IMG/VR virus record: IMGVR_UViG_2660238524_000003
Direction: 5' to 3' (one strand)
Length of the DNA stretch: 40,665 nucleotides
Origin: a virus
Taxonomy: Duplodnaviria > Heunggongvirae > Uroviricota > Caudoviricetes
Position numbers and translations under genes: made by a program
The notes under the pieces: generated by a model
Told to the model about the DNA's origin: nothing
Databases searched by the model: none
What the model saw: only the letters and a program-made list of their open reading frames with translations
Shown: positions 5,790-30,723 of the stretch, one piece after another
Layout of the letters: each line of letters begins with the position of its first letter
How positions within the stretch are numbered: position 1 is the first letter of the stretch

Positions 5790-8583
5790 CATCCGGGTCG
5801 CTTTCAGCGCCGTTGACAGGCTGACCCGGCCTGCCGAAAACGCCCGCCGCCTGATGGGGCAGTTTGGTGACTCCATTCAGCGAACGCAGGGGGCGATCAA
5901 AAATCTCGAGCGTCAGGCGCGTTCATTTGAGCGCGCCCGCGACGCTGTCAGTAAAGCGGATGCGGGTATCGTGAAAGCACGACGCCAGCTTAACGCCCTT
6001 AATCAGTTACAACGCACGGGTACAGTGCTCAGCGAAAAACAACAAAAGCTGATGCAGCAGTTAAGCACCCGGCTTGAACGCCTGAATGAATCGCGCACAC
6101 GGGAAATTCAGAAAATGCGGGAGCTTGGCGGAGAACTGAAACGCCACGGCATTTCCCTGACAGGCAGCGATAACACCATCCAGCAGGCCATCAGACGCAC
6201 CGAACAATACAACAACCAGCTTGAACGCGAACGGCAGGCGCTTGCGCGTGTAACGCAGGCTCGTGAGCGGTATTCGCGCGCGCAGGAAACCGCGGGAAAA
6301 CTGAAAACAGGTGGTGCGCTGGCAATTGGTGCGGCAGCGGCGGGCGGCTATGCTGCCGGGCGTTTTTTGCAGCCCGCGATCGGGTTCGGCAAAGAGATGT
6401 CCCGCGTTCAGGCGCTGACGCGAATCGACAAAAACAGCCCGCAGTTTAAGGCGCTGCGTGAGCAGGCGTTAAAACTTGGCTCTGAAACACAGTTTACTGC
6501 GAGTGATGCCGCCAGTGGGCAGAGCTTTCTGGCAATGGCTGGTTTTACTCCGCAGGCCATTCAGGCCGCATTGCCCGGTGTTCTTAATATGGCGCTGGCA
6601 GGTGGCGTCGAACTCGGCGAGACGGCTGATATAGGCTCCAATATCCTCACACAGTTCAACCTGACAGCCGATCAAATGGACCGGGTTGGCGATACGCTGA
6701 CAGCGGCATTCACCCGGACCAATACTGATTTACGCGCGCTGGGCGAAACCATGAAGTATACCGGTCCGGTTGCCGCAAAACTTGGTATCAGTCTTGAAGA
6801 AGCGGCAGCCATGGCCGGGATGCTTGCCAATAATGGTCTTCGTGGAAGCGATGCTGGTACGGCCATGCGCGCAAGTCTGTCCCGCCTTGCATCACCGCCA
6901 AAAGCTGCGGCTGATGCGCTGAAAGAGCTGGGGGTGTCAGTTGCTGACGCCAGAGGCAAAATGCGCCCGATGGAGGATGTGCTGCTTGATCTCTATAAGG
7001 CGACACAAAAATACGGACAGGTGGACCAGGTTTCCTTCTTCAAGGACATCGCCGGAGAAGAGGCGTTCGTTGGTTTGCAGACGCTTGTTGCGGCGGCTGG
7101 TTCAGGAGAGCTGCAAAAACTGACCAGAGAATTGCAGGGGGCAAGGGGAGAGGCCGATCGCGTTGCAAAAGTAATGGCCGATAATCTTGATGGGGACCTG
7201 AAAAATCTCGACAGCGCATGGGAAGGTCTTCGTATTCGCATCAGTGATCTGGTTGACGGTCCGCTGCGTTCTGTCACGCAGTGGCTCACGCGGGTGCTTG
7301 AAAAAATCACCTCGCTGGCGCAGGCCCATCCGGTACTGACGCGCCAGCTACTGATAGCAGGCGGTGCGTTGCTGGCAATGACTGCAACGGTTGGCTCGTT
7401 GTCGCTGGCTATTGGTGTGCTTGCTGGCCCGCTGGCAAAACTGCGTCTTGGCTTTTCCCTCCTGACCGGTTCAATGAATGCTGTCAGACTCCTGCCAGCA
7501 CTATGGGGAATGGTGACGGGTTCCGTTTCGTTACTGGGGGGCGCTATCGGGGCGTTGTTCAGTCCGGTCGGCCTTATCGTGGCTGCGCTTGCCGGAGCTG
7601 CCGTTCTCATCTGGAAATACTGGGATCCCATCAGGGCATTTTTTGCCGGGGTGTTCAGCGGGATTATGGAAAGGCTGACCCCGTTGCGCGAAACCTTTGA
7701 ACGGTTTGGTCCTGTTTTTGACGCAATCGGGAGTGGGATCAGCCAGGTGTTTAACTGGTTTAAATCGCTGCTGTCTCCGATGGAGTCCAGCAAGGAAACT
7801 CTGGATAAATGTACCAGTGCTGGCGAGATATTCGGTAACGTTCTTGGCGGTGCGTTACAACTTGTTCTGACACCTGCAAAAATGTTGCTGGATACGCTGG
7901 CGTGGATACTTGAAAAGCTTGGTGTGCTTCCGGATGAAGCGGAAAGGGCGCGCAAGAAAATCGAAGACGCACAGCGTGCGGCCATTCTTCAGGACAAGGT
8001 TGCCTTGCTTCAGGGGGACCTGGCGAAAATCAATCCGCCGAAGCCTGTGGAAAATGGCAATGGCACCGGAGGTGATAACCCCAAAGACAATAAACCGCTC
8101 ACAGACAGCAATACCGGTACGCTGCGCAGACTCAGCAAAATTGCTGATAACACAGGTAAGCTGGTTGAGGAGACGAAAAAACGCATTGGCCCCGGCGATA
8201 TTGTCTTTAAAAACCTGCCCCGAGCACTTGCTGTTCGTGGGGAGTGGCAGGAGCGGAAGATTGCGCAGGTCAGTAAGCCTGCCCCCGCAATTAATATCAC
8301 ACCCGTGGTCCCGGCTCCGCTGCCTCCGGCGCTGGTCCCTGTTGTTGCGGCCAGCTCCCGCCCGGTGGCGGAGGCTATACGATCTCCAGTGGCATCAGTT
8401 CCTGTAACTTCCCGTAACCGGGAGCCTGTTGCCTCCGGATTTGGTGGTGAAATTCATGTTCATCTGCATAACGTTGTTACGCAGAATCCCCGCGAACTGG
8501 CGAAACTGGTCGGTGAAATGGTCAGGGCAGAAATGGAACGGCGCGCCCGTGCCGGGCGTGGCAGTTTTTACGATAAAGATTGA
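5767..8583 (+). CDS. tail tape measure protein T
   Basis: About 940 aa, coiled-coil N-terminus and Ala/Gly-rich hydrophobic core. Start ambiguous (GTG 5740, ATG 5767 or 5776). Confidence 0.9.
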   Translation: MQIMKTLDIRVAFSAVDRLTRPAENARRLMGQFGDSIQRTQGAIKNLERQARSFERARDAVSKADAGIVKARRQLNALNQLQRTGTVLSEKQQKLMQQLSTRLERLNESRTREIQKMRELGGELKRHGISLTGSDNTIQQAIRRTEQYNNQLERERQALARVTQARERYSRAQETAGKLKTGGALAIGAAAAGGYAAGRFLQPAIGFGKEMSRVQALTRIDKNSPQFKALREQALKLGSETQFTASDAASGQSFLAMAGFTPQAIQAALPGVLNMALAGGVELGETADIGSNILTQFNLTADQMDRVGDTLTAAFTRTNTDLRALGETMKYTGPVAAKLGISLEEAAAMAGMLANNGLRGSDAGTAMRASLSRLASPPKAAADALKELGVSVADARGKMRPMEDVLLDLYKATQKYGQVDQVSFFKDIAGEEAFVGLQTLVAAAGSGELQKLTRELQGARGEADRVAKVMADNLDGDLKNLDSAWEGLRIRISDLVDGPLRSVTQWLTRVLEKITSLAQAHPVLTRQLLIAGGALLAMTATVGSLSLAIGVLAGPLAKLRLGFSLLTGSMNAVRLLPALWGMVTGSVSLLGGAIGALFSPVGLIVAALAGAAVLIWKYWDPIRAFFAGVFSGIMERLTPLRETFERFGPVFDAIGSGISQVFNWFKSLLSPMESSKETLDKCTSAGEIFGNVLGGALQLVLTPAKMLLDTLAWILEKLGVLPDEAERARKKIEDAQRAAILQDKVALLQGDLAKINPPKPVENGNGTGGDNPKDNKPLTDSNTGTLRRLSKIADNTGKLVEETKKRIGPGDIVFKNLPRALAVRGEWQERKIAQVSKPAPAINITPVVPAPLPPALVPVVAASSRPVAEAIRSPVASVPVTSRNREPVASGFGGEIHVHLHNVVTQNPRELAKLVGEMVRAEMERRARAGRGSFYDKD

Positions 8584-8595
8584 GGAGTCATGGCC

Positions 8596-9084
8596 ATGAT
8601 GATGATCTACGGCATGTTTGTTTTTGAGCTGCGCACGCTGCCGCATCAGCAGTTACAGCAAAACAAAAGCTGGCGGCATGTGAAAAATGAACGCGTTAAC
8701 CGTTCAGCAAGCTGGCAGTATATCGGTGCAGGTGATGATCGCATCGTTCTTTCTGGTGTGCTTTATCCTGAAATTACAGGTGGCGAAGTGTCGCTGTCGC
8801 TGCTGACCACGCAGGCGTATACAGGACGACCCTGGCCTTTGATTGATGGCGTCGGGCAGATTTACGGCATGTATGTCCTGACTGAAACGAATACGACCCG
8901 CTCCGAGTTTGATCGCTACGGTAAGGCGAAAAAGATAGAATTTTCACTGACTCTTGAACGCTGTGATGAGGATTTGCGGGAGCGCCTGCAATCCTCATCG
9001 TTCAGTGATATGCTGTCCGGCTTCAAAGATAAGGTGACATCATCTCTTAACAGCGCGGCCAGTTCAGTTAAAGGGCTGTTCTGA
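8596..9084 (+). CDS. tail protein U
   Basis: MMMIYGMFVFEL... resembles P2 gpU; GAGGAG at 8583-8588 favours ATG 8596 over 8590. Confidence 0.88.
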   Translation: MMMIYGMFVFELRTLPHQQLQQNKSWRHVKNERVNRSASWQYIGAGDDRIVLSGVLYPEITGGEVSLSLLTTQAYTGRPWPLIDGVGQIYGMYVLTETNTTRSEFDRYGKAKKIEFSLTLERCDEDLRERLQSSSFSDMLSGFKDKVTSSLNSAASSVKGLF

Positions 9085-9092
9085 TTTAACAC

Positions 9093-9131
9093 AAAAACCG
9101 CTAATGGTCAGATTAGCGGTTTTCATTTTCC
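9093..9131 (+). terminator. terminator after U, convergent with invertase 3' end
   Basis: Hairpin aaaccgctaat/attagcggttt (9095-9122) followed by T-rich run. Confidence 0.5.
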
Positions 9132-9712
9132 TGAGTCTGCCCGGTTGTTTCTTCAGTCTGTATATCGCCTACAGGGTGATAACGATAAATCGTCGATGTG
9201 CCAATGCCGTAAATTATTGCCAGTTGTTTTCTGTCGTGCCCGTTTTTGATTAGCCTTGCTATTTGCTCATGCTGTTCTTTTGTCAGCTTCGGTCGACGTC
9301 CGCCTGTGCGCCCCCTTGCGCGCGCTGCCGCCAGCCCGGCCAGTGTACGTTCAACAATTAATTCACGTTCCATTTCAGCCAGGGCACCCATCACGTGGAA
9401 GAAAAAACGCCCCATTGGAGAAGATGTGTCTATGCTGTCGGTCAGACTGCGAAAATTAATCCCTCGCTCCCGTAGTTCCCCGACGAGAGAAATCAGATGT
9501 TTCATGCTTCGCCCGAGGCGATCCAGTTTCCAGACAACCAGCGTGTCACCTTTTTGAAGGCGCTTTAAAGCGCGTTTTAATCCCGGTCGGTCTGTCTTTG
9601 TCCCGCTTAATTTATCTTCAAATATTTGTTCACATCCTGCACAAACAAGAGCGTTTCGTTGCAGGTCTGTATTCTGGTCATTTGTTGATACCCTTACATA
9701 GCCAATCAGCAC
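9113..9712 (-). CDS. serine DNA invertase (Gin/Pin/Cin/Hin family)
   Basis: N-terminus LIGYVRVSTNDQNTDLQRNAL and the rest closely resemble Gin/Pin. Start placed at GTG 9712 (GGGAGA RBS), reproducing the family N-terminus. Confidence 0.92.
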   Translation of the reverse strand: MLIGYVRVSTNDQNTDLQRNALVCAGCEQIFEDKLSGTKTDRPGLKRALKRLQKGDTLVVWKLDRLGRSMKHLISLVGELRERGINFRSLTDSIDTSSPMGRFFFHVMGALAEMERELIVERTLAGLAAARARGRTGGRRPKLTKEQHEQIARLIKNGHDRKQLAIIYGIGTSTIYRYHPVGDIQTEETTGQTQENENR

Positions 9713-9766
9713 ACTGAATCTCCCGTCCAAAAGCGCAAATCATGCCATGCAGGCCAGAAACGGCCA

Positions 9767-9792
9767 TTATTTAAAACCTCGGTTTACGAGAA
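9767..9792. other. gix/hix-like crossover site (left)
   Basis: TTATTTAAAACCTCGGTTTACGAGAA, a 26-bp imperfect palindrome with the AAACC-NN-GGTTT core of Gin/Hin/Cin sites as recalled. Confidence 0.6.
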
Positions 9793-10488
9793 CTCGGCAC
9801 AAGCGGGGAGAAAATACCGTTACTCAGTACAGCGAATACCTGGACCAATCGACAAACATTCAGCGGTGGCCTTTCTGGGGAACTGTCCGGCAATGCCGCT
9901 ACTGCAACAAAGCTGAAAACAGCACGAAAAATTGCTGGAGTTGGTTTTGATGGTTCTAGCGATATTTCAATTAGTGCCAAAAATGTCAATGCATTTGCAC
10001 TCCGACAAACAGGTAATACTGTTAATGGTGATACATCCGTTGGATGGAATTGGGATAGTGGTGCATATAACGCCATGATTGGTGGTGCATCTGCATTAAT
10101 TCTTCACTTTAATATAAATGCTGGTAGCTGTCCTGCCGTACAATTCCGTGTGAATTATAAAAATGGTGGCATTTCCTACAGGTCGGCTCGTGATGGTTAT
10201 GGGTTTGAATTAGGTTGGTCAGATTTCTATACCACGACACGAAAACCTTCAGCGGGAGATGTTGGTGCATATACGCGGACAGAATGTAACTCAAGGTTTA
10301 TTACAGGTATTCGCCTTGGCGGTCTGTCATCTGTTCAGACATGGAATGGTCCCGGCTGGTCTGACAGGTCAGGTTATGTCGTTACGGGTTCAGTTAACGG
10401 AAACCGTGATGAATTAATTGATACAACACAGGCAAGGCCAATTCAGTATTGCATTAATGGGACGTGGTATAACGCGGGGAGTATTTAA
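9775..10488 (+). CDS. alternative tail-fibre C-terminal variable cassette, silent in this orientation
   Basis: Frame open from 9775 with no start codon; encodes ...[29 protein letters not shown]..., parallel to but diverged from the expressed H C-terminus. Confidence 0.75.
   Translation, partial: NLGLRELGTSGEKIPLLSTANTWTNRQTFSGGLSGELSGNAATATKLKTARKIAGVGFDGSSDISISAKNVNAFALRQTGNTVNGDTSVGWNWDSGAYNAMIGGASALILHFNINAGSCPAVQFRVNYKNGGISYRSARDGYGFELGWSDFYTTTRKPSAGDVGAYTRTECNSRFITGIRLGGLSSVQTWNGPGWSDRSGYVVTGSVNGNRDELIDTTQARPIQYCINGTWYNAGSI
9776..9878. repeat. left inverted repeat of invertible segment
   Basis: 9776-9845 is an exact reverse complement of 12531-12462; identity continues with one mismatch to 9878/12429. 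Confidence 0.9.
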
Positions 10489-10490
10489 CG

Positions 10491-11024
10491 ATGATGCACT
10501 TAAAAAACATTACTGCTGGCAACCCTAAAACAAAAGAGCAATACCAGCTAACAAAGCAATTTAACATCAAATGGCTTTATTCAGCTGATGGAAAAAACTG
10601 GTATGAGGAACAAAAGAATTTCCAGCCAGACACTTTGAAAATGGTCTATGACCATAACGGCGTTATTATTTGTATTGAAAAGGATGTTTCAGCAATTAAT
10701 CCGGAAGGCGCAAGCGTCGTTGAATTACCTGATATTACAGCAAATCGCCGGGCTGATATTTCGGGGAAATGGATGTTCAAAGATGGCGTAGTGGTAAAGC
10801 GAACTTATACCGAGGAAGAGCAGAGGCAACAAGCGGAAAATGAAAAGCAGAGCCTGTTGCAACTTGTCAGGGATAAAACTCAGCTATGGGACTCACAGCT
10901 ACGGCTGGGCATCATTTCCGACGAGAATAAACAAAAATTAACCGAGTGGATGCTCTATGCGCAGAAAGTCGAATCCACAGACACCTCCAGCCTGCCAGTA
11001 ACATTTCCCGAACAACCTGAATGA
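10491..11024 (+). CDS. tail fibre assembly protein, alternative copy
   Basis: 177 aa, MMHLKNI... paralogous to the 11053-11580 copy. Confidence 0.85.
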   Translation: MMHLKNITAGNPKTKEQYQLTKQFNIKWLYSADGKNWYEEQKNFQPDTLKMVYDHNGVIICIEKDVSAINPEGASVVELPDITANRRADISGKWMFKDGVVVKRTYTEEEQRQQAENEKQSLLQLVRDKTQLWDSQLRLGIISDENKQKLTEWMLYAQKVESTDTSSLPVTFPEQPE

Positions 11025-11027
11025 GAC

Positions 11028-11058
11028 AAGGCCCGATAACGGGCCTTAATTTTTATTC
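11028..11058. terminator. stem-loop between convergent assembly genes
   Basis: ggcccg-ataa-cgggcc hairpin (11030-11045) followed by T-rich run. Confidence 0.45.
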
Positions 11059-11580
11059 AGGCTTTTGTGGCCATTCAGGATTTGCCGTATCCACACGGTT
11101 GACCAGAACACTGTAGCGTTCCCATGCTTCCAGTCGTGTGCGTTCCTCGTCTGTTGCCATATTCAGCCTGACAGCGCGTTCCAGCGGCTGGATGACTGAT
11201 TCAGCTTCGGAAAGCAATGCGGCCTTTTGTGATTCGGCCTGTTGTTGCTGTTCGTCAGCCGTATAAATCCGTTTAACCACAGCTCCGTCCTTAAACATCC
11301 ACTTACCGGAATCATCGGTCCGACGATTGGCCGTTATATCGGGAACCTCGACGACGCTAAAACCTTCGGGATTAAGCGTGGAGGCATCTCTGGTGATGGC
11401 GACAATAATATTATTTTCATCGTAAACAATCTTTATGGTGTCTGGCTGAAAGTTTTTCACTTCCTCATACCAGTTTTTTCCGTCCTCAGAGTAAAGCCAG
11501 ATAACTCCGTGTTTCTTTGTTAACTCATACTGTTCCAGTGTTTTAGCATTACCCGCTTTTATGTTCTTTAAGTGCATCAT
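11053..11580 (-). CDS. tail fibre assembly protein (expressed orientation)
   Basis: 175 aa, immediately downstream of H on the same strand. Confidence 0.88.
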
Positions 11581-11581
11581 A

Positions 11582-13804
11582 TTAAACGCTCGCTACATTA
11601 TACCAGGTGCCATTTATATACTTTTGAACGGGTCTGTAATAAACACCCGCTATATTATCGGCAGAGTTAGACCCTGTATCCTGAACATTAATACCAGACA
11701 ATACATGACCTGAAGGGCACTGGAAATTCCATGTTCGCCAGTTGTTCACTCCATAATATTGCTGTGAACCAAGTCGAACATCTTTCACATAACGGGAATC
11801 AAAGTTACCGTAATCCGAGGGATTAACACGCCCCGTAATATTTATGGTCTTATTACTTTGAATGCTTCCGGGAACAAAGCGCATAACATGGACGTAATTA
11901 GCATAAACATCCAGATTACCATCGCCATTTTGTTTAAAGCCCGTGTCATTATCACCCAATACAATCGAATTACCGCCAAGAGCACTGGATGTTCCGATAC
12001 CCAGTGCACCATTCAGTTGACCACCAGATAACGGCAGTGCACCAACATCTCCTGCTGAAGGTTTTCTGGTGGTGGTGTAAAATTCGGACCAGTCGGCTTC
12101 AAAACCATAACCATCACGGGCTGAACGATAAAAAATACCGCCATTTTTATAATTAATCCGAAACTGAGCTGCAGGACAACTTCCGTCTCCCATATAAAAA
12201 TGAATAATTAACGTTGATGCACCACCAATATTTGCGTTATAGGCTCCGCTACTCCAGTTCCATCCAACTGCTTTATCATTCGCAACGGTGCTTCCTGTTT
12301 TCCCTAAGGCAAACGCACCAACATGACTTGCTTTTAATGTGATATCGGAGGAACCATCAAAAGCCACATTGCTTATTTTCCTGGCAGTTTTTAATTTTGC
12401 AGCTGTAGAAGCATTGCCGGATAGTTCACCAGAAAGGCCACCGCTGAATGTTTGTCGATTAGTCCAGGTATTCGCTGTACTGAGTAACGGTATTTTCTCC
12501 CCGCTTGTGCCGAGTTCTCGTAAACCGAGGTATTCGATAACGGCAGCAACGGTCGATTTCGCAAGAATATCCCGCCCGACTTTTGTCAGGGTTGCCAGGC
12601 TGGCGACATCATTCCCCGTAAAATACGGAAACTTGCCTGCCGCAGTAGTAAGTCCGGCCAGCGCCGTCAGGGTGGCATCTTTCGGTTGCTTACCCGCAAG
12701 CGCGTTAGTCATGGTGGTCGCAAAATTCGGGTCGTTGCCCAGCGCCGCAGCCAGCTCGTTCAGCGTGTTCAGTGCATCAGGTGACGAATCTACAAGGGCG
12801 GCAATCGCAGCCATAACGAAAGCCGTGCTTGCGATTTGGGTATTATTCGTTCCCTGTCGCGCAGTTGGTGTTGTTGGCGTTCCGGTCAGTGCAGGACTAT
12901 TTAAGGGCGCTTTCTTGTTCGTTTCATCCATTACCGCCTTAACAGCTTTCGATGTCGCGGCCAGTGTTTCAGACGTGCTGTTGGTGGCACTACTGAGCTG
13001 GACTATCCCTTTTTGTGCCGTCGTGGCGTCCTGAGCGGTATATTTTGCGTTAGCAAGGTCATACGCGGCCTTTACTGCTTTCGGCGTTGCAGCCTGCGTT
13101 TCAGACGTGCTGTTGGTGGCGCTACTGAGCTGGACAAGGCCTTTTCGCGTCGTGCTGGCATCCTGCGCAGTATATTTACCGTTAGCAAGGTCATACGCGG
13201 CCTTTACTGCTTTCGGCGTTGCAGCCTGCGTTTCAGACACGCTGTTAGTGGCGCTACTGAGTTGAACAAAGCCTTTTGCGGTCAGCGAGGCGTCCGGGTG
13301 ACGTCGTGACTGTTCATGCTCTTTCAGTTTGTCATCCACGTAATCCACTGTGGCCATCACCATGGTGTTATCCACGGTAAGCACCACGGTGGCAGTGCTG
13401 GATACGGTCAGAATGGTGCGAAATGTTTGTGCACGACCGGACCCTTCGGCAACGGCTGGCTTGTAACTTTCGGCAGTATTGCCCACCGCGATTAAATCGC
13501 CGTGCTCATCAAATACACCAATTTCCCGGATCCAGAATCCGCCCGTTTCAGGAGGAATAACCAGCTCCGCAATAATGCGGTTCTGATGTGTTGCGTCCAG
13601 GATGACGCGATTAACAGTATGTCGCCACACCTCATGCACCAGACGGGTCTGCTTACTGTCTGGTGTGGGCAACGTGCCGCCACCGTCGCCCACGGCCATA
13701 TGAGTCAGGCGGACAGGCTTACCATCTGGCGCGGCTGCCTGAGCTAATTTTTTGGCACCCGTATCGGTGATAACGGTTTTAAATTTACGTGTTGTGGTAC
13801 TCAT
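11582..13804 (-). CDS. tail fibre protein H
   Basis: 740 aa; N-terminus resembles P2 H. The C-terminal ~310 codons lie inside the invertible segment. Confidence 0.92.
12429..12531. repeat. right inverted repeat of invertible segment
   Basis: Reverse complement of 9776-9878; gix-like site at 12515-12540. Confidence 0.9.
12934..13330. repeat. three tandem 132-bp repeats inside tail fibre gene
   Basis: gtttcagac(g/a)... recurs at 12966, 13098 and 13230; encodes three 44-aa repeats (...[33 protein letters not shown]...). Confidence 0.75.
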
Positions 13805-15580: not shown

Positions 15581-16158
15581 TGCGGGCCTCCTGTCGAATC
15601 GCTGCCACCTTTAACGCCACCGTGCTTATGCGTATGCACGGTAATGCCGTTTGAGGTGAAATTGCCGCCGCTGTGCGTGATATTGCCGCTCATCTTTCCC
15701 TCTTTTGTGACGTCAAGCGTCGCCGTTCTCAGAAGGTTTGTGCATTCCACGACGGGCGTATCCAGTGTCACGCTGACGGATGCCTGCAGGGTGGCTGTTT
15801 TCATGCCGCTGGCGCTCAGTGCGCCAGCGTCTGCGTCGTAGCGGAACACCGCGCCATCCGGCGCGCTGACCACGATTTCTTTCAGGCTTTTGCCGGGGGC
15901 CGGACTGGCATCACTCCACAGGCTGCCAATTATCATGGCGGTTTCCGGGTTGCCGCCAATGCAGGCAATTACCACCTGTTCGCCTGGTGATGGCGGCAGC
16001 CACACATTGAAGGCTCCCGCGCGCGTGGTGTTCCAGCGCAACCAGCCTGTTTCCAGTTCGCCGCTGCGAACGCGCACGCGCCAGGACTTCTCATCAACTT
16101 CAGAGATGATCCCGGTGCGGATGATGTTGCTCAGCAGTCGCATGAGTTCTGCGCTCAC
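15577..16158 (-). CDS. baseplate spike protein V
   Basis: C-terminal ...HTHKHGG... as P2 gpV; GTG start with GGAGG RBS, overlapping S stop. Confidence 0.88.
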   Translation of the reverse strand: MSAELMRLLSNIIRTGIISEVDEKSWRVRVRSGELETGWLRWNTTRAGAFNVWLPPSPGEQVVIACIGGNPETAMIIGSLWSDASPAPGKSLKEIVVSAPDGAVFRYDADAGALSASGMKTATLQASVSVTLDTPVVECTNLLRTATLDVTKEGKMSGNITHSGGNFTSNGITVHTHKHGGVKGGSDSTGGPQ

Positions 16159-16790
16159 CGTACAGCCTCCGCAATCCGGCCCAGCACCGTGTTATAAATC
16201 AGGCGCTCATCTGCCTGGCTGATACCCAACAGCTCACGTACCGGGTAATCGGTGAAAATGCCCGGCGCAACCTGATCGCGCTCACCGAACTGATGAACGC
16301 GTGCAATACGTGCGGCCACGCCGCTGTAACCCACCGTCACACCGGAGGCATCTGCACGGGCTTTCAGGTAGCGGGCGGTGCGCAGTTTTACGAACATGGG
16401 GACGCGCTTTGTGCTGTCCTGGTTGATGCGCCGGGTGCGTATTTCCAGAAAACGGTCGATGTCATCCCGGTAAAACGTGCGGATATTGTTTTTATCCTCA
16501 TCCCACCCGGTAATGGTTCGCCCGTATTTCCCTGTGTCGTGATGCCAGTTTTTCAGCGTGCGTGCTTCGTTATTCCAGATAAAGCGAATGCGCTCCTGTA
16601 TCCGGGTTACGCGGCGTCTGCGTGGTGTCCATTCGGTCCCGTCCGGCGCTTTTTGTGACCGGATACGTGCCTGCTGGGCGCGACGTAAATCCTGTGCCAG
16701 CTTTCTGGCGATGTTATTGATGGCCTGCTGATTCAGGCTGTCGCGGATAGCCTCAAAGGTTTCATCCACGCGGGTGAATGCCTTATCCAT
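16155..16790 (-). CDS. tail completion / virion morphogenesis protein S
   Basis: Position between R and V; start at ATG 16790. Longer than P2 gpS, so assignment is by synteny. Confidence 0.65.
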   Translation of the reverse strand: MDKAFTRVDETFEAIRDSLNQQAINNIARKLAQDLRRAQQARIRSQKAPDGTEWTPRRRRVTRIQERIRFIWNNEARTLKNWHHDTGKYGRTITGWDEDKNNIRTFYRDDIDRFLEIRTRRINQDSTKRVPMFVKLRTARYLKARADASGVTVGYSGVAARIARVHQFGERDQVAPGIFTDYPVRELLGISQADERLIYNTVLGRIAEAVR

Positions 16791-17250
16791 CGCTTTCACC
16801 CCACGTCACATCCTGGAATACATGCGACCAGTCGCCTTCGGAAGAAGGCAGACGGGGTTTTGGCTCCGGCAGGTGTTCTGCCTGCGGTGTGCCCTGACTG
16901 TTGCGCGTGATGCGAACGCGTTCCCGCAGGGGGAGCGTAAACAGGAGATCGGCGCTGTCATCGTCATTGATAACGGCAGAAAATTTGATGTCCTGATTAC
17001 GCTCCGGATTGAGCAACAACTGTGGCTGATTTTCGGATAACCACGCCAGCAGCGGCAGCGTGAGGTCGTCCAGCTCTCCGGCGTAATCCATGACAAACAT
17101 CACCATCTGATAGCGGTAAACAAACGAGGGCGCTTCTCCGGTCGTTTCAATGTTGCCGCTCTCCACGAAAATGGTGAATTTCTCGGGATTAGCCTGGCAC
17201 CACCGACACCCATGAAGCATGGACTCTCGCAGACTGTTTGTCTTAAGCAT
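16783..17250 (-). CDS. tail completion protein R
   Basis: 155 aa, MLK..SLR... resembles P2 gpR. Confidence 0.8.
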   Translation of the reverse strand: MLKTNSLRESMLHGCRWCQANPEKFTIFVESGNIETTGEAPSFVYRYQMVMFVMDYAGELDDLTLPLLAWLSENQPQLLLNPERNQDIKFSAVINDDDSADLLFTLPLRERVRITRNSQGTPQAEHLPEPKPRLPSSEGDWSHVFQDVTWGESDG

Positions 17251-17273
17251 CTGTTTTGCTCTCCTGCTCTTCC

Positions 17274-19151
17274 TTATGCTGCGGGATTATTGATTTCCAG
17301 CACCAGGCTGCCGATATCGACGCCGTACGCGGCATTTTTAGTGATATCAGTTAACGTCAGCGCATTCAGCCCCAGTGTCAGACTGTCTTTTATGACCTGG
17401 AATGCCGGGCCAGCCACTCCATTCAGTTTCGGAGTAACCGTGGCACTGCCGGCGGTGAACACCAGCTCCAGCGTCTGCCAGTCGTTACTGTAATTCCCGA
17501 ACTCGCCCAACTTTGTGTTTCCTGCTTTCTTGTGATGCATCAGATTCAGTTTGCCGTCTGTGGTCTGGGTGAAGAACGACATCAGGAACGGGTTACCAGT
17601 CCCGGTCATCGCCACGACGTCAGGTAACGCTACATCGGTATACAGATAAATTCCCAGACCGAACTGATTGTTGGTCAGTGCGCCTGACAGTCGAAACTTA
17701 CAGCTCAGTCTGCCACCCCGTGTCAGCAGGGAGACTGCGTCATCCACCGGGCGCGTCAGGGACCAGGCTTTATTGCTCTGCTTGGTGATCTTAAATACAC
17801 CCTCTGACAACTGAATTCCGCCATTCTTAATGCTCCAGCCCTGCGCAGCAGCATCTCCGGCTGTCGGCAACAGGGAGATTGTGCGTACGGATGCATCTTC
17901 AGACGGCCCCGATGGCGTGTCGCCGCCGGGCGAGGGTTTGATTTCCGGTGCCTTACCACTGATGAAGGCTAAGGTGCGACCGGCTACGTTCAGAATAGCG
18001 GTTGCCATACGATCGGGAATAATGCCACGACGCGCCCATGAGCTGAAATGCGTCTGGCGATTTGATGATACCCAGTTTTTGTTCGTTCGGGATGCCGAAC
18101 CGTAATATCCCTCACTTGCAGCATCCGGATCTTCCGTTGGTGCGTTGGTGGAGGTATTGTTGCCACTACCATCGGTCAGGAACGGCACAAAGAAAACGTT
18201 GTCGCTCTCCCTGTTTTTGTACGCCCCGTAAATGGTGTCGTACTGCGTGCCGTAGGTGTTTTTCCAGTAATACGTCGTGTCACCACAAATCCATGGCACA
18301 CTTGCCGCTCTGCCTCCATGACACTGCGTGTTAAACTCGGTAATGTCCGCACGAAACTGTTTCAGCATGGCCGTAAACAGCGGAGGTTGCTGTGAGTACG
18401 TAGCGGCGCTCATGTCAAATTCGCCCTGCATCCAGCATACGGCCAGCAGCATGTTTTTTGGGTTTTTCTGCAATGCGGCCTTCGTGCGCAAAATCAGGTC
18501 CTGATATAAAGGTTTACCCACACCCCAGCGAGCCGAATCCTGACTGGCTCCTGTGGACTCGCTGAATGTCCCCTCCGCGCCCTGGGTGAATGCCGAACCA
18601 CCACGACAGCATGGAACCAGTAAAATCCCGGCATTCTGTGGAATGTAAGGCAACAGGCGTTTGGCAATATGCAAGCCCTGTCCGACACAGCCATACTGCC
18701 CTTTGCTCAGGTCTGCATTCGGGTGATTCAGTGCGCTCATATCCTGAACATCATGCAGGCAGTGGTCTGCCGGAATGATGTCGTTAAATGCGCATGCTTT
18801 ACCACCGGGAGTCACTGTGTTGCGACGGGCCAGTTGCTTAATGCGTGGGTGGGGCGCATCGTAAGAATCCGGCAGCGGCATTCCCTCACCATATGACATG
18901 GCATTGGATTGACCAGCAAGTACCACCACGTAATACCACTCCGGCACGCTGCCGTGCTGGGGGGAATCAGGTGAGATGTCTGTAGTGCCATCGGCCACCA
19001 TTGCCTGCATTAGATACCACGGGGTGCCGGGTTCGTAGGCAACCCGCGTCTCCCCCTGAAGATGCCACCCTTTCGCAAGATGTTCATTCACCTTTTGAGT
19101 CAGTTCAGCCTGTGTCATGGCTGTAATCAGTGCAAAGTTCTTACTGGTCAT
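17274..19151 (-). CDS. SGNH-hydrolase esterase, sialate O-acetylesterase (NanS-p)-like cargo protein
   Basis: 625 aa; GQSN block-I motif (VVVLAGQSNAMSYGEG) of the SASA esterase family, with N-terminal extra domain and long C-terminal domain. No P2 equivalent between lysC and R. Confidence 0.7.
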   Translation of the reverse strand: MTSKNFALITAMTQAELTQKVNEHLAKGWHLQGETRVAYEPGTPWYLMQAMVADGTTDISPDSPQHGSVPEWYYVVVLAGQSNAMSYGEGMPLPDSYDAPHPRIKQLARRNTVTPGGKACAFNDIIPADHCLHDVQDMSALNHPNADLSKGQYGCVGQGLHIAKRLLPYIPQNAGILLVPCCRGGSAFTQGAEGTFSESTGASQDSARWGVGKPLYQDLILRTKAALQKNPKNMLLAVCWMQGEFDMSAATYSQQPPLFTAMLKQFRADITEFNTQCHGGRAASVPWICGDTTYYWKNTYGTQYDTIYGAYKNRESDNVFFVPFLTDGSGNNTSTNAPTEDPDAASEGYYGSASRTNKNWVSSNRQTHFSSWARRGIIPDRMATAILNVAGRTLAFISGKAPEIKPSPGGDTPSGPSEDASVRTISLLPTAGDAAAQGWSIKNGGIQLSEGVFKITKQSNKAWSLTRPVDDAVSLLTRGGRLSCKFRLSGALTNNQFGLGIYLYTDVALPDVVAMTGTGNPFLMSFFTQTTDGKLNLMHHKKAGNTKLGEFGNYSNDWQTLELVFTAGSATVTPKLNGVAGPAFQVIKDSLTLGLNALTLTDITKNAAYGVDIGSLVLEINNPAA

Positions 19152-19429
19152 TGTGTTACTCCCGTCTGGTGTGTCAGTTCGGCTATTCTCTTATCCAGTT
19201 CAGCAATGGCCCGTTTATCCGCGTTACAGGTTTCCAGTGCATCCAGAAGGCGGTCGCCCCATATTCCGAGGTTTCCCCATGTGGGTGGGTCAGGGAAGGG
19301 GGGAGGCGTTACCGGCATGGTCAGCGTCTGCGGTATAAGCCGGACTGACGGCGCTGGCCCTGGCGCGTTCTGCGTGCCTGCGCAACCTGTCAGTAAAACG
19401 AGCGTCAGGCAAAGCGTGGGCGCATTCAT
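19148..19429 (-). CDS. o-spanin lipoprotein (LysC/Rz1-like)
   Basis: Signal peptide with lipobox LLTGC; begins embedded in the LysB frame and extends past it. Confidence 0.7.
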   Translation of the reverse strand: MNAPTLCLTLVLLTGCAGTQNAPGPAPSVRLIPQTLTMPVTPPPFPDPPTWGNLGIWGDRLLDALETCNADKRAIAELDKRIAELTHQTGVTQ

Positions 19430-19685
19430 CTTTTGCAATATCGTTGCGTAGCTGTTCACGTCTTACCTCTCCGTCCTGATTGCGTTGCTGATTTTCCGCG
19501 CGGAGCTGAGCCAGCACCTGCTGCATATCCTGTACCCCGGCGCTGATGATATTCAGTGTGTCGACGGTACTTTTCAGGGTGCTGGCCTGCGCTTCGTTTC
19601 TGGCGTTCTCCCGGCCCAGCGACCACGACAGACGCATGGATGTAATCAGAAGGAAAGCGACGCCAAGCGTGGGCCAGAGCTTCAT
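19290..19685 (-). CDS. i-spanin (LysB/Rz-like)
   Basis: N-terminal TM helix (MKLWPTLGVAFLLITS) followed by a charged, Gln-rich coiled coil; ATGA overlap with endolysin stop. Confidence 0.75.
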   Translation of the reverse strand: MKLWPTLGVAFLLITSMRLSWSLGRENARNEAQASTLKSTVDTLNIISAGVQDMQQVLAQLRAENQQRNQDGEVRREQLRNDIAKDECAHALPDARFTDRLRRHAERARASAVSPAYTADADHAGNASPLP

Positions 19686-20074
19686 GCCGGATAGGCTCCG
19701 TGTGGTAACTGAAAATGCGGTCCGTCTTTCAGGGTCTTCCAGTCGCCGCCCCATTCCACCGGAATATTCAGTTCCTGGCTGGCCTGTCTGAATGCTGCTG
19801 CGATTTTTTCGTACAGCGGCCATTCCCATGACACCTGGTTGCCGACATAAGCCACAACATCCACGGCATGCCCTGTGAGATGGCGACTGTTCATGGTCTG
19901 GCTCTTGCCTGTGGTCACGAGCTGCTTCTGACGATAACGACTGCGCAATCCTTCGGTGATACCAAAATCCACTTCCGAGATTTCCAGCGCCCGTCGGGTC
20001 ACTTTCACCAGATCAGGATTTACACCCTGCAAATTCTTTTCGCTCCGGCTGCTGAATTTAAATGTGTTGCTCAT
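19682..20074 (-). CDS. endolysin, peptidase M15-type
   Basis: 130 aa with NSRHLTGHAVD zinc-peptidase-like motif; GAAGGAGAGGA RBS. Confidence 0.7.
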   Translation of the reverse strand: MSNTFKFSSRSEKNLQGVNPDLVKVTRRALEISEVDFGITEGLRSRYRQKQLVTTGKSQTMNSRHLTGHAVDVVAYVGNQVSWEWPLYEKIAAAFRQASQELNIPVEWGGDWKTLKDGPHFQLPHGAYPA

Positions 20075-20394
20075 TCGTTCCTCTCCTTCACCCTGCGATC
20101 AAATATTGCAATAACCTTGTCGCGTGCTTTCTCTGCGCCCATAAAACCGATTGAGGCACCAAAAAACGTCACTGCATCCTCAGGGATCCCGAAGAAGCGC
20201 AGCGACCCGGCCACGGCCATGGCAAGAACGCCGCACGCCAGCGATCCCGTTACGGTCTGAACCAGTGTTCGTCCGTCATAAAGACTCATCAGCGCGGAAA
20301 TGCTGACCGCCGCGCCTACTGCATACACCGTTGGCAGGTGGTCAAAGAGCCACGCAATAACCTGCTCTGTGATCCCTGTTTGAATGGTGCTCAC
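20071..20394 (-). CDS. putative holin
   Basis: 107 aa, two or three hydrophobic helices and basic C-terminus; GTG start with GGGGGGAG RBS just after the gpX stop. Confidence 0.55.
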   Translation of the reverse strand: MSTIQTGITEQVIAWLFDHLPTVYAVGAAVSISALMSLYDGRTLVQTVTGSLACGVLAMAVAGSLRFFGIPEDAVTFFGASIGFMGAEKARDKVIAIFDRRVKERNE

Positions 20395-20396
20395 TG

Positions 20397-20603
20397 CTAC
20401 TCCCCCCACAACTGAATCATTTCTCGTTTCTTCTTCTCCGGCTCCGGCATCTCCACTTCCTGCCCGGCGTCCAGAAATACCTGCTGACAGAGTCCGGGGT
20501 TGGCATCCAGCACCTTTTCGGTGACGCCCTGTGTCGTGCCGTAGTACCGGAAACAGAGCGAATCCACGGTGTCGCCTTCCAGTGCCTTCACTTTCATCAG
20601 CAC
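20397..20603 (-). CDS. tail protein X
   Basis: 68 aa, ...RYYG.T.GV.E.VL.ANPGL... resembles P2 gpX. Confidence 0.85.
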   Translation of the reverse strand: MLMKVKALEGDTVDSLCFRYYGTTQGVTEKVLDANPGLCQQVFLDAGQEVEMPEPEKKKREMIQLWGE

Positions 20604-21091
20604 AGCTCCGCAAACATTCGCGGTCGTCCCAGAATGTCAGAGATGGCCCAGCTCACATCGCGCCACAAATCCGATGTCTGTATATCCAGTGCGTCCGCCC
20701 GGCGGTCGCCCTTGTCCGTTGTGTCCGCATCGCGGTAACGCTCCAGAATCAGGGCGCGTGTGGCGGTATAAACAGCATTGCGCCAGTGCCAGAGATTGAC
20801 GCTTTCTCCGTTAATTACAGGGGCCGGAACATCGGCCAGCGTCTGATAGCCAGCCGCCTGTTGTTCCTGCTGCCATGCTTCCAGCTCGCGGGTAACGTGT
20901 GCTATGGCCCCGGTGGCGGTATGCAGCAGGCGGGAGGTGGTCACGCGGCCCGGCAGTCGTACCGCCAGACGCAGCTCGCGCAGCACAATATCCGGCCAGA
21001 ATGCACCCGCTGAAATACGGGTATCGCCATCATCGGTGTCGGTGATGTCGTCCTCTGCGGGGCCGGGGTTAGTTCTGGCAACCATACTCAT
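20597..21091 (-). CDS. head completion protein L
   Basis: C-terminal ...LWRDVSWAISDILGRPR... resembles P2 gpL; start at ATG 21091 with AGGAG RBS. Confidence 0.85.
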   Translation of the reverse strand: MSMVARTNPGPAEDDITDTDDGDTRISAGAFWPDIVLRELRLAVRLPGRVTTSRLLHTATGAIAHVTRELEAWQQEQQAAGYQTLADVPAPVINGESVNLWHWRNAVYTATRALILERYRDADTTDKGDRRADALDIQTSDLWRDVSWAISDILGRPRMFAELC

Positions 21092-28165: not shown

Positions 28166-28663
28166 ATGAACCCAATAACACTACAAATCATCAGCAATGC
28201 TATTGTTCTGCTTGGCGTTTTGGTTGCCATTGGAACCATTATCTACAATGTGCGTACCGCAAAAAAAACTCAAACGGCCAACTTTCTTTTTGAGAGTCGG
28301 CAAGATATGCAATATATAGAGTCATTGCATACCCTGAAACAAGTGCATCGTTCAGGCAAATCATTTCGTTCTTATGTTTTTCCTTGTGATGGTTGCATAA
28401 TAACAGATGAAGAAATGGCCGAGCGTCGAAAATTTCAATATATTTTAAATTTTTACGAGCGAGTTGCTGTAAGTATTCGTGAAGGTATTTATGATGAAAA
28501 AATGATAAAAAGAACATCTTACACAACAGTTGTAGAGACATATGATATTGCCGAGCCATTAATTAAAGCAATCAGAGAAAGCATTAATTCGGATACTACA
28601 TATCAAGAATTCGAATGGTTAGTAAGAAGATGGAAAGCTAATCCTTTACGGAAAAACAAATAA
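28166..28663 (+). CDS. membrane-anchored hypothetical protein (cargo gene 1)
   Basis: 165 aa; N-terminal TM helix (ITLQIISNAIVLLGVLVAIGTIIY) then a charged domain; AT-rich codon usage unlike the phage core. Confidence 0.7.
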   Translation: MNPITLQIISNAIVLLGVLVAIGTIIYNVRTAKKTQTANFLFESRQDMQYIESLHTLKQVHRSGKSFRSYVFPCDGCIITDEEMAERRKFQYILNFYERVAVSIREGIYDEKMIKRTSYTTVVETYDIAEPLIKAIRESINSDTTYQEFEWLVRRWKANPLRKNK

Positions 28664-28874
28664 TGTTTTACCCTTTAATTTACAAGTAACACAGGGGGAA
28701 GTGTGACACAGAATCCGTTTTCATTTTATGACTTTTTGGGCTATCTAATTCCAGGTGGGTTATTCCTGTTTATCCTTTTTTTGTTTTCTATTGAAATTAA
28801 CCCTGTTTATATAGAAGGTATTCTTAACCATATCCTGAAATATAAAGAAATAATAAGTGTATTTATATATGTGG

Positions 28875-28882
28875 TATTAATC
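28875..28882. repeat. IS1 target-site duplication (left copy)
   Basis: TATTAATC immediately left of the IS1 end. Confidence 0.85.
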
Positions 28883-28897
28883 GGTAATGACTCCAAC

Positions 28898-29401
28898 TTA
28901 CTGATAGTGTTTTATGTTCAGATAATGCCCGATGACCTTGTCATGCAGCTCCACCGATTTTGAGAACGACAGTGACTTCCGTCCCAGCCTTGCCAGATGT
29001 TGTCTCAGATTCAGGTTATGCCGCTCAATTCGCTGAGTGTAACGCTTGCTGATTACGTGCAGCTTTCCCTTCAGGCGGGATTCATACAGCGGCCAGCCAT
29101 CCGTCATCCATACCACGACCTCAAAGGCCGACAGCAGGCTTAGAAGACGCTCCAGTGTGGCCAGAGTGCGTTCACCGAATACGTGCGCAACAACCGTCTT
29201 CCGGAGCCTGTCATACGCGTAAAACAGCCAGCGCTGGCGCGATTTAGCCCCGACGTATCCCCACTGTTCGTCCATTTCCGCGCAGACGATGACGTCACTG
29301 CCCGGCTGTATGCGCGAGGTTACCGACTGCGGCCTGAGTTTTTTAAATGGCGGAAAATCGTGTTGAGGCCAACGCCCATAATGCGGGCGGTTGCCCGGCA
29401 T
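28898..29401 (-). CDS. insB: IS1 transposase InsB
   Basis: 167-aa ORF recognised as IS1 InsB; made as an InsAB' frameshift fusion. Confidence 0.9.
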
Positions 29402-29595
29402 CCAACGCCATTCATGGCCATATCAATGATTTTCTGGTGCGTACCGGGTTGAGAAGCGGTGTAAGTGAACTGCAGTTGCCATGTTTTACGGCAGTGAGAG
29501 CAGAGATAGCGCTGATGTCCGGCGGTGCTTTTGCCGTTACGCACCACCCCGTCAGTAGCTGAACAGGAGGGACAGCTGATAGAAACAGAAGCCAC
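29320..29595 (-). CDS. insA: IS1 InsA
   Basis: 91-aa ORF ([23 protein letters not shown]...) recognised as IS1 InsA. Confidence 0.9.
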
Positions 29596-29650
29596 TGGAG
29601 CACCTCAAAAACACCATCATACACTAAATCAGTAAGTTGGCAGCATCACC

Positions 29651-30404: not shown

Positions 30405-30719
30405 TTATTCTGGGAATAAGGTCTGAATATTCTTTTTTATTTTATAAAAATTGCATTCAACTCCGCTAGGCTGATTATCCTGGTATGTTTCCTTGATGCT
30501 AACGGTATTGAAGGGGAGGTTGTCCTCTGGCCATTCGGCCATCCAGTAGGCAAATGCTGGGTTGCGCTTTATGAGCGCTAGCCCAGCCAGAAAGGCCGCG
30601 CGTTGCGCGCGGCTGCGTTCGGAGGCTGGCAGGCTATCGAGGTAATTGCACGCCTCCTGTTCACTCTTGACGGCGGCGGGCTTCAGATAGAAACTTATCC
30701 GTCTGGTTGGTGTCGTCAT
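30405..30719 (-). CDS. ParR/StbB-like centromere-binding adaptor
   Basis: 104 aa from ATG 30719 (AAGGAG RBS), directly downstream of the ParM-like gene; ...LDSLPASERSRAQRAAFLAGLAL... resembles R1 ParR as recalled. Confidence 0.65.
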   Translation of the reverse strand: MTTPTRRISFYLKPAAVKSEQEACNYLDSLPASERSRAQRAAFLAGLALIKRNPAFAYWMAEWPEDNLPFNTVSIKETYQDNQPSGVECNFYKIKKNIQTLFPE

Positions 30720-30723
30720 TGGT

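Follow-up and report, generated by a model that had tools for sequence, protein, structure and literature searches.

The window analysed here, a 40,665-nucleotide (nt) stretch of tailed-phage DNA (IMG/VR virus record IMGVR_UViG_2660238524_000003), carries between its lysis gene lysC and its tail-completion gene R a gene for a 625-residue protein that we read, with a probability of about 0.8, as a sialate 9-O-acetylesterase of the NanS-p family, borne by the late operon of a P2-family phage and released at lysis. The window is a segment of an Escherichia coli chromosome that extends from serS across an entire P2-family prophage up to its integrase gene, and over the probe used it is 100% identical to genomes of sequence type 131 (ST131) such as EC958; the prophage, which adjoins serS, is a P88-like (Xuanwuvirus) member of the P2 family. 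The gene (17274..19151, minus strand, ATG start, 625 amino acids (aa) plus stop) is of the EC958_1029 / WP_000202148 type, as identified from the list of open reading frames (ORFs), Pfam, PHROGs and the RefSeq coding sequence in EC958, where its product is labelled a DUF6645 or DUF1737 domain-containing protein. It had thus been annotated already, and mentioned once in the literature; what is added here is its slot in P2-like phages, the chimerism between the N-terminal head of the protein and its esterase-lectin body, and the existence of lineage-specific heads. Our literature search found no published account of P2-like carriage, nor of the conserved slot, the chimerism or the head types.

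The domain searches agree with the original prediction of a NanS-like SGNH esterase, since they recovered all three domains of NanS-p together with the catalytic serine and histidine; judged by these matches, the protein is a NanS-p-type SGNH esterase of three modules, a DUF1737 head, the esterase and a lectin-like domain. The head (aa 1-55; 18987..19151, minus strand) is of a P2-type clade marked by an EPGxPW insertion in the β2-β3 loop. Pfam places PF08410 (DUF1737) at aa 4-53 with 28.8 bits against a cut-off of 24, and in an AlphaFold model (AF2) built from 37 family sequences, with a mean predicted local distance difference test score (pLDDT) of 73.8, the elements β5-11, α14-26, β30-38 and β46-53 form a helix-plus-three-strand fold. 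A Ser/Pro-rich linker (DISPDSP; aa 56-68; 18948..18986, minus strand) follows the head and a Pro/Ser/Gly-rich one (aa 399-422; 17886..17957, minus strand) follows the esterase, both predicted to be disordered with pLDDT <50.

The central module is an SGNH type II (SASA) sialate O-acetylesterase domain (aa 69-398; 17958..18947, minus strand), in which Pfam detects SASA at aa 75-271 (E=2e-11, above the gathering cut-off) and of which aa 69-388 match the chromosomal NanS (YjhS, structure 3pt5) at E=1.7e-125 and ~65% identity over 320 residues in a phmmer search of solved structures. Ser82 (18906-18908), Gln81 and His368 (18048-18050) align to Ser19, Gln18 and His301 of NanS, and the GQSN motif (residues 80-83; 18903-18914) is invariant, residue by residue (G80, Q81, S82, N83) and together with H368, in 12 diverse homologues and in 37 sequences. 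NanS works with Ser19 and His301, has Gln18 in its oxyanion hole, and like the rest of its family has no catalytic Asp (PMC9063846). Of the triad Ser/His/Asp named in the original prediction, the window protein therefore holds Ser and His and lacks Asp, as do all NanS, and because the whole family is without it the missing Asp does not refute the esterase reading.

The C-terminal module (aa 423-625; 17277..17885, minus strand) is a lectin-like jelly-roll domain, DUF6645, recognised by Pfam (PF20350 at aa 476-586, E=2.1e-19, above the gathering cut-off), by the match of aa 430-622 to 6yp6, the crystallised C-terminal domain of phi24B NanS-p (E=1.7e-29), and by Foldseek. Searched with the AF2 model, the latter returned 3pt5 (TM score 0.81) and 6yp6 (TM score 0.85, root mean square deviation 2.1 Å), followed by lectins and sialic-acid-binding modules. 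The aromatic residues proposed for the carbohydrate site of vb_24B_21 (Y510/Y515/Y540/F611) align to F497/Y502/F527/L593, so that three of the four are aromatic and the fourth is a Leu, likewise found in 434 and EC958_1546. The domain probably binds carbohydrate.

The ORF at 17274..19151 is a real, intact gene; a chance ORF is ruled out by its full-length match to phrog_143 (1068 bits) and by its unchanged presence in hundreds of complete genomes. The ORF list, the position of the motif and the Pfam-named neighbours all place a 625-aa GQSN protein between lysC and R, as had been claimed, and supply the strand, minus, that had not been given. The overlap of its start codon with the spanin stop also stands: the plus-strand tcat at 19148-19151 is ATGA on the minus strand, in which the ATG (19151-19149) overlaps the TGA of lysC (19150-19148). 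This start region (19148..19163, minus strand) further contains a GGGAG Shine-Dalgarno sequence (19159-19163) with a 7-nt spacer. Translational coupling to lysC is possible given the overlap; the gene has, however, this ribosome-binding site of its own. The motif at the junction of lysC and the nanS-p start, GGAGTAAnnnnATGA, is kept in all P2-type carriers examined, distant P2-like phages included. On the other side, a 23-nt spacer (17251..17273, minus strand) leads to R and carries its Shine-Dalgarno sequence GGAGAG; no hairpin was found in this spacer, and two distant P2-like loci (L033 and L034) have a GC-rich hairpin 3' of the gene.

P2 indeed has nothing at this place, as the original prediction stated: in its annotation lysC (8202-8492) overlaps R (8455-8922) by 38 nt. 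The same holds for the close relative P88, in which the lysC stop overlaps the R start with no gene between, and nanS-p is absent from P88 and from seven other Xuanwuvirus-type records, with flanks that are 96% identical. By blastn, P88 and the window are 95-97% identical up to 19204 and again from 17208, and the segment without P88 homology (17209..19203, minus strand) takes in the 3' end of lysC, nanS-p, the spacer and the 5' end of R. Homology thus stops inside lysC, 52 nt before the nanS start, and resumes 43 nt into R; the last ~17 codons of lysC and the first 14 of R differ from those of P88. An exchanged unit that includes foreign ends of both flanking genes is the expected product of recombination between two P2-like phages, and we propose that the gene entered this phage in such a way, through lysC and R. 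Illegitimate insertion of a lambdoid gene into a P2 phage was also considered; the exchanged lysC and R ends, the conserved slot and the P2-specific N-terminal domain speak against it.

What the enzyme may do can be approached from its characterised relatives. The NanS-p family has been studied experimentally (PMC10462455); the NanS-p proteins of EDL933 and O104:H4 are active esterases on 9-O-acetylated N-acetylneuraminic acid (Neu5,9Ac2), support growth on it and de-O-acetylate mucin glycans (PMC8065619), and lambdoid nanS-p genes are induced together with the late genes (PMC10462455, PMC8065619). In the mechanism that we propose, the window esterase would be made only in lytic development, alongside the capsid, lysis and tail-completion proteins, and, having no secretion signal, would get out when the phage lyses the cell, as a free protein or attached to virions. 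Outside, it would be expected to strip Neu5,9Ac2, whether free or part of mucin-type glycans, of its 9-O-acetyl groups, by which the sialic acid may become available to sialidases and, in sibling lysogens that survive, to the Nan catabolic pathway.

The resemblance to the lambdoid and Shiga toxin (Stx) phage proteins (933W L0105/z1466, phi24B vb_24B_21/gp84, EDL933, O104:H4) extends to the order DUF1737-SASA-DUF6645, the Ser/His/Gln residues, the lack of a secretion signal and a place next to the lysis cassette, in the window as a presumed late gene, with ~87% identity over residues 70-625 to the proteins of 434, JLK-2012 and a Stx1a phage. The carrier differs, being a P2-family myovirus and not a lambdoid phage, and so does the position, since the lambdoid genes lie between Q/stx and holin S whereas the window gene follows the spanins in an operon of capsid, lysis and tail-completion genes. 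Moreover, the window head is of a separate clade (21-37% identity to lambdoid heads) with a 4-residue loop insertion, no DUF1378 gene is adjacent, and the C-terminal domain belongs to the 434/JLK type and is ~36% identical to the crystallised phi24B domain. Chromosomal NanS shares the catalytic domain (~65%), its SGNH type II class, the Ser-His pair without Asp and the Gln of the oxyanion hole, but consists of one domain only and is encoded in the nanCMS operon; the phage-encoded window protein has the DUF1737 head and the lectin-like domain in addition. NanS-p has hardly been considered other than as fitness cargo of Shiga-toxin phages, and here the same enzyme is found in a P2-like late operon.

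The surroundings of the gene are those of the lysis and tail-completion part of that operon. Upstream lie a holin gene (20071-20394, RefSeq annotation), just upstream of an endolysin gene of the M15 peptidase type (19682..20074, minus strand; Pfam Peptidase_M15_4, phrog_465 endolysin), a lysB-like inner spanin gene with DUF2570 (19290..19685, minus strand, RefSeq coordinates; phrog_214 Rz-like spanin, E=1.7e-39) and the outer spanin gene lysC (19148..19459, minus strand, as the longest ORF, with the RefSeq start at 19408; Pfam PF23793, E=1.6e-13). Downstream are R, for the tail completion/terminator protein (16783..17250, minus strand; Pfam P2_Phage_GpR PF06891, E=1.4e-38), and S, for virion morphogenesis/tail completion (16155..16799, minus strand; Pfam Phage_tail_S), the last gene of the P2-type O operon. 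According to the P2 annotation, O-N-M-L-X-Y-K-lysA-lysB-R-S form one transcript that starts upstream of O and ends at a terminator after S, and the gene order of the window, taken from the RefSeq annotation of EC958, is syntenic with it. No promoter or terminator brackets nanS-p itself: the 4 kb from 16700 to 20700 hold 2 promoter-like and 4 terminator-like sequences against 2.7 and 3.6 expected by chance. Embedded as it is in the operon, the gene most probably has to be read through for R and S to be transcribed.

The original prediction had called the gene a moron made late with lysis and tail proteins. Its location among the lysis and tail-completion genes of the late operon holds, and the co-expression is read from synteny and from the lack of own signals. 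The term moron does not fit in its classic sense: the gene is an accessory one, absent from P2 and P88 and set between conserved flanks; an own promoter and terminator and a deviant composition were not found, GC content being 54.1% for the gene, 54.6% for the head and ~55.5% for the surrounding late region. The accessory-gene (moron) slots of P2 are orf30, Z/fun and tin/old, and to our knowledge the lysC-R slot is not among the described P2 hotspots. It is like them in holding a non-essential gene, present in some P2-like phages only, with conserved essential genes on both sides, and unlike them in that its gene has no detectable promoter or terminator, no compositional anomaly and the orientation of the operon within which it lies.

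Several observations weigh against the reading of a late-expressed, lysis-released esterase. A sigma-70-like match (9/12) lies at 17314-17286, in the 3' end of nanS-p just upstream of R, so R and S might not strictly depend on read-through. Upstream of gpO no exact site for the P2-type activator dyad TGT-N12-ACA was found, and the promoter regions of P2 and the window do not align; because of this, late control is argued from synteny only. The AF2 model has pLDDT <50 around the loop of the catalytic Ser and is poor in several other loops of the catalytic domain, for which reason the active-site geometry is taken from the 65% sequence identity to 3pt5 and not from the model. That no signal peptide is evident was judged by eye. 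No enzymatic or expression record for this allele was found in the literature searched. A transposon-directed insertion-site sequencing study of EC958, dated 2017, reports EC958_1029 to be 82.7% identical to the NanS-like EC958_1546, whose overexpression raises motility, and gives no motility phenotype for overexpressed EC958_1029, an assay that does not address esterase activity (PMC5425062). Finally, four loci (L020, L025, L026 and L029) have deleted or frameshifted copies (ORFs of 218-286 aa) between intact flanks; since such copies exist and P88 is without the gene, it is dispensable for the phage.

A probe made of the lysC junction and the head was found at full coverage in 376 of 5,426 complete E. 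coli genomes (~7%). The full lysis-nanS-R arrangement is present in 373 of these, at most 3 being without the R flank, and the reading frame is intact in ~373/376. Carriers include the pandemic extraintestinal pathogenic clone ST131 and the O104:H4 outbreak strain C227-11, in which the P2-borne allele, WP_000202135, is one of five nanS-like loci; nanS-like copies per E. coli genome have a median of 2 and reach 19. Given its P2-like carriage in ~7% of E. coli genomes, phage-driven access to O-acetylated mucus sialic acids would extend beyond Shiga toxin-producing E. coli and lambdoid phages.

Scanning IMG/VR with the head gave 37 loci. In 26 of them the P2 lysis genes upstream are of the window type, and R and S usually follow downstream if the contig reaches that far. 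Another seven (L033-L039) belong to distant P2-like phages, in which Pfam recognises LysC, GpR and a capsid protein of the P2 family; their identity to the window is 62% for gpN, 70% for gpL, 56% for R and 46% for S, and all the same they carry a three-domain homologue of 642-656 aa in the same lysC-R slot. Cluster names place these distant carriers in E. coli (P0090, with 277 members, and P0057), and two of them (L033 and L036) had no megablast match in the phage collection. Divergent P2-type members of two other clusters (P0076 and P0106) also sit between lysis genes and R. In the phage collection, 353 of 50,697 records contain a homologue, all of them lambdoid or Stx phages except three P2-like ones, which are in-silico prophages from clinical isolates. 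Two records, vB_EcoM-569R5 and 705R2, were considered as proof of induction and set aside, being in-silico prophages from clinical genomes whose ends inside nanS reflect limits of extraction or assembly. Searched with the head alone, an index of 5.8 billion proteins yielded nothing but fragments of the same allele at contig ends; HMMER with the head matched only 10 of 1.84 billion representatives, which came without gene context; and the P2-type head profile found nothing in the GTDB species-representative genomes.

In three IMG/VR loci (L007, L019 and L023) with the P2-type lysis genes and head, the gene downstream of the esterase is not R but that of a lambdoid holin S, 93% identical to its 434 counterpart; either the shared body gave rise to genuine P2-lambdoid recombinants, or repeats induced a misassembly. 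Another variable neighbour is a DUF1378 gene of 50-60 aa, which directly follows nanS-p in lambdoid (F451), Mu-like and some P2-like phages (9046-9213 in L058, 9105-9257 in L059, 4573-4752 in L044 and 10235-10417 in L052) and is missing in the window.

The window protein as a whole is ~80% identical to the NanS-p of 434, JLK-2012 and a Stx1a phage, and this figure hides a sharp break in the per-domain comparison, at PEWYY (aa 70-74). Before it, the head (aa 1-69) is ~30% identical to the 434 and JLK-2012 proteins; after it, identity to them rises to 85-86% in the catalytic domain and 87-88% in the C-terminal one. Against the distant P2-like proteins the pattern is reversed, with 50-54% for the head, 66-70% for the catalytic domain and 31-39% for the C-terminal domain. 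The heads fall into two clades, with 47-100% identity within the P2 type, 47-98% within the lambdoid type and 21-37% between them, and the 4-residue insertion (EPGxPW motif) is present in 8 of 9 P2-type cluster representatives against none of 73 lambdoid ones. In the contexts examined, P2-type heads were seen only in the lysC-R slot of P2-like phages, and among loci with a 100% identical head the identity of the body ranges from 87% to 100%. On these comparisons the protein is chimeric, a head of the P2 lineage being joined to an esterase-lectin body; because the body is near-identical and the head divergent, the former is exchanged with lambdoid copies in the same host by recombination or gene conversion and the latter not.

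EC958 itself offers a case of such exchange. Its EC958_1546 (L047:18189-20042), in the lambdoid prophage Phi4 of this ST131 strain, has the same architecture in the same type of genome. The 3' ~800 nt of the two genes (window 17274-18070) are 98-100% identical and their C-terminal domains 97% identical as proteins, whereas the catalytic part is a mosaic (62-96% at the nucleotide level, 83% as protein) and the heads share only 30% of their residues (~51% of nucleotides). This pattern indicates that gene conversion has recently taken place between two prophages of a single chromosome that are unrelated to each other, and near-identical 3' halves of P2-borne and lambdoid copies are also a potential substrate for chromosomal rearrangement. 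The ratio of nonsynonymous to synonymous substitution rates (dN/dS) is 0.06 for the head in two unsaturated pairs and 0.12-0.21 in deeper ones, next to 0.10-0.15 for the catalytic domain and 0.18-0.52 for the lectin domain; by this measure, the head is under purifying selection and not a decaying leftover.

Other heads occur on the same body. Six cluster representatives (e.g. P0133 and P0080) have an unrelated N-terminus of ~115 aa in place of DUF1737, for which no Pfam or PHROG match was found. Both members examined are in Mu-like prophages (L052-L054 and L057), after tail-fibre and invertase genes and, in L057, before mom; in these Mu-like loci genes for DUF1378 and DUF826 follow the esterase, likewise in Stx2a phage F451. 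At the other end of the protein, a rare 752-aa variant (P0020) equals the window protein except that a phage tail-collar domain (PF07484) stands in place of the final ~25 residues.

The variety of heads bears on the first of three alternatives to an enzyme that serves the lysogens, one that we hold possible although doubtful: the protein may be displayed on virions, its P2-type DUF1737 head anchoring to gpN capsid hexons and the esterase and lectin forming a decoration, perhaps later cleaved at the Ser/Pro linkers, that helps virions bind to or move through O-acetylated sialomucin. Catalysis would be as in our preferred explanation; the beneficiary would be the phage particle, and the role of the head would change. 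The idea comes from phi24B, whose gp84 is a NanS-p with a DUF1737 hexamer that plugs the pores of capsid hexons via a loop with Tyr42, as seen by cryo-electron microscopy and proteomics, in the central hexons of a T=9 capsid, the rest of the protein (esterase and lectin) being removed proteolytically (bioRxiv 10.64898/2026.04.10.717836). By analogy with this homologue, which decorates the capsid, the division between cargo and structural protein on which the original prediction would have been refuted is outdated.

The window head has, by Pfam and AF2, the helix-plus-three-strand fold of this capsid-binding head, followed by a disordered Ser/Pro linker, and its β2-β3 hairpin loop contains, in the alignment and in AF2, a lineage-specific 4-residue insertion, YEPG, followed by W45 and Y46, which would be the counterpart of the Tyr42 anchor loop; no solved DUF1737 structure for superposition, that of phi24B gp84 included, was in the copy of the PDB searched. 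In the contexts examined, head clades track phage lineage (lambdoid, P2-like, Mu-like) while bodies swap across lineages, the non-DUF1737 head of ~115 aa occurs only in Mu-like prophages, the divergence of the head (50-54%) parallels that of gpN (62%), selection on the head is as strong as on the catalytic domain, and nanS-p shares one operon with the capsid genes. Lineage-specific heads could, however, arise merely because only the homologous body can recombine. Within the lambdoids, head type does not follow capsid type: the capsids of 434 (lambda gpE type) and JLK-2012 (a 645-aa protease-capsid fusion) are unrelated (BLASTP E=14), yet their heads are 82% identical, which lowers the case for a virion anchor. 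In the T=9 shell of phi24B only the flat hexons, those at the centres of the facets, are bound by the head, and the result comes from a single preprint. P2 capsids are T=7 and have no facet-centre hexons, and we know of no decoration protein of P2. Close relatives such as P88, moreover, make virions without the gene.

As a mucus-glycan-binding capsid decoration, the protein would be comparable to T4 Hoc and the phi24B gp84 head, having a small N-terminal DUF1737 of the capsid-binding type of fold, flexible linkers and glycan-directed domains; it differs in that Hoc has no enzyme domain, and capsid binding in P2-like phages is proposed by analogy only. Generalised, this becomes the tentative and rather unlikely view that the N-terminal module of NanS-p is an interchangeable, lineage-specific virion anchor (DUF1737 in its lambdoid and P2-like forms, the ~115-aa module in Mu-like phages, occasionally a tail-fibre part) on a body that is a shared cassette moving by recombination. 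If true, the window gene would encode the first decoration protein of a P2-family capsid, enzymatic and mucin-directed, and the natural head swaps would be a ready means of testing what it is that DUF1737 recognises. A shared, recombining body that bears lineage-specific heads shows the protein to be modular, and the proposed capsid-anchor role of DUF1737 is directly testable.

A second alternative, that the enzyme removes O-acetyl groups from bacterial surface glycans (O-antigen, polysialic or K-type capsule) and so exposes a receptor or frees virions from debris, is improbable. It has been raised as an open possibility for NanS-p in a review (PMC8065619), and the window gene is in the same operon as tail-completion proteins, with which it is assumed to be co-produced; one 917-aa protein (P0102, L050) even joins a lambda Stf-like tail-fibre N-terminus (PF08400) to the esterase-lectin body, the architecture expected of an enzyme acting on receptors. 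This fusion is nonetheless seen in no more than two metagenomic contigs, where it lies at the end of a prophage (adjoining grxB-pyrC-dinI), and may be a remnant of recombination; the window protein has no tail-fibre or baseplate-attachment domain, its catalytic domain is 65% identical to the catabolic chromosomal NanS, all reported biochemistry of the family concerns free or mucin-bound Neu5,9Ac2 and not bacterial glycans, and the phi24B homologue sits on the capsid, not the tail. Least probable is a functionless passenger, a hitch-hiking remnant inside the operon homogenised by gene conversion with active lambdoid copies, since against its dispensability and absence in P88 and P2, the truncated and frameshifted variants, the many nanS-like copies per genome (median 2, up to 19) and the lack of a phenotype on overexpression in EC958 (PMC5425062) stand a frame intact in ~373/376 junction genomes, invariant catalytic residues, a dN/dS well below 1 in all three domains, including a head beyond the reach of lambdoid gene conversion, and a slot kept across P2-like lineages only 46-62% identical in structural proteins.

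The rest of the prophage was surveyed as well. That it might be defective, given that the FI-U block is on the opposite strand and gpD is annotated with 267 aa, was considered and rejected: P88 has the same layout, which is the normal one of P88-like phages, and gpD of the window (2232-3341) is an uninterrupted ORF of 370 codons, 99% identical to gpD of P88, the truncated 267-aa protein and pseudogene fragment of the RefSeq entry for EC958 being an annotation artefact. Near serS, at the prophage end beside ogr, there is a hok/gef-family toxin gene (1599-1739), also present in P88. A Cin/Hin-type invertase gene (9113-9712) adjoins a tail-fibre shufflon (region 9113-12500), whose inverted repeats (9807-10269 and 12038-12500, 72-88% complementary) flank alternative tail-fibre C-termini and assembly proteins. 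The portal gene and the replication genes enclose an accessory region that is the positional counterpart of the tin/old hotspot of P2; PADLOC gave no hits for any ORF in it, and relative to EC958 it bears an IS1 insertion (28700-29600, transposase ORF 28898-29401) that interrupts a hypothetical gene downstream of a DUF4760 gene (28166-28663). In the early region, by the replication endonuclease gene, lies a plasmid-type segregation pair made up of a Plasmid_stab_B-family gene (30405-30854) and a ParM-like gene (30724-31683), which is unusual in an integrated P2-like phage.

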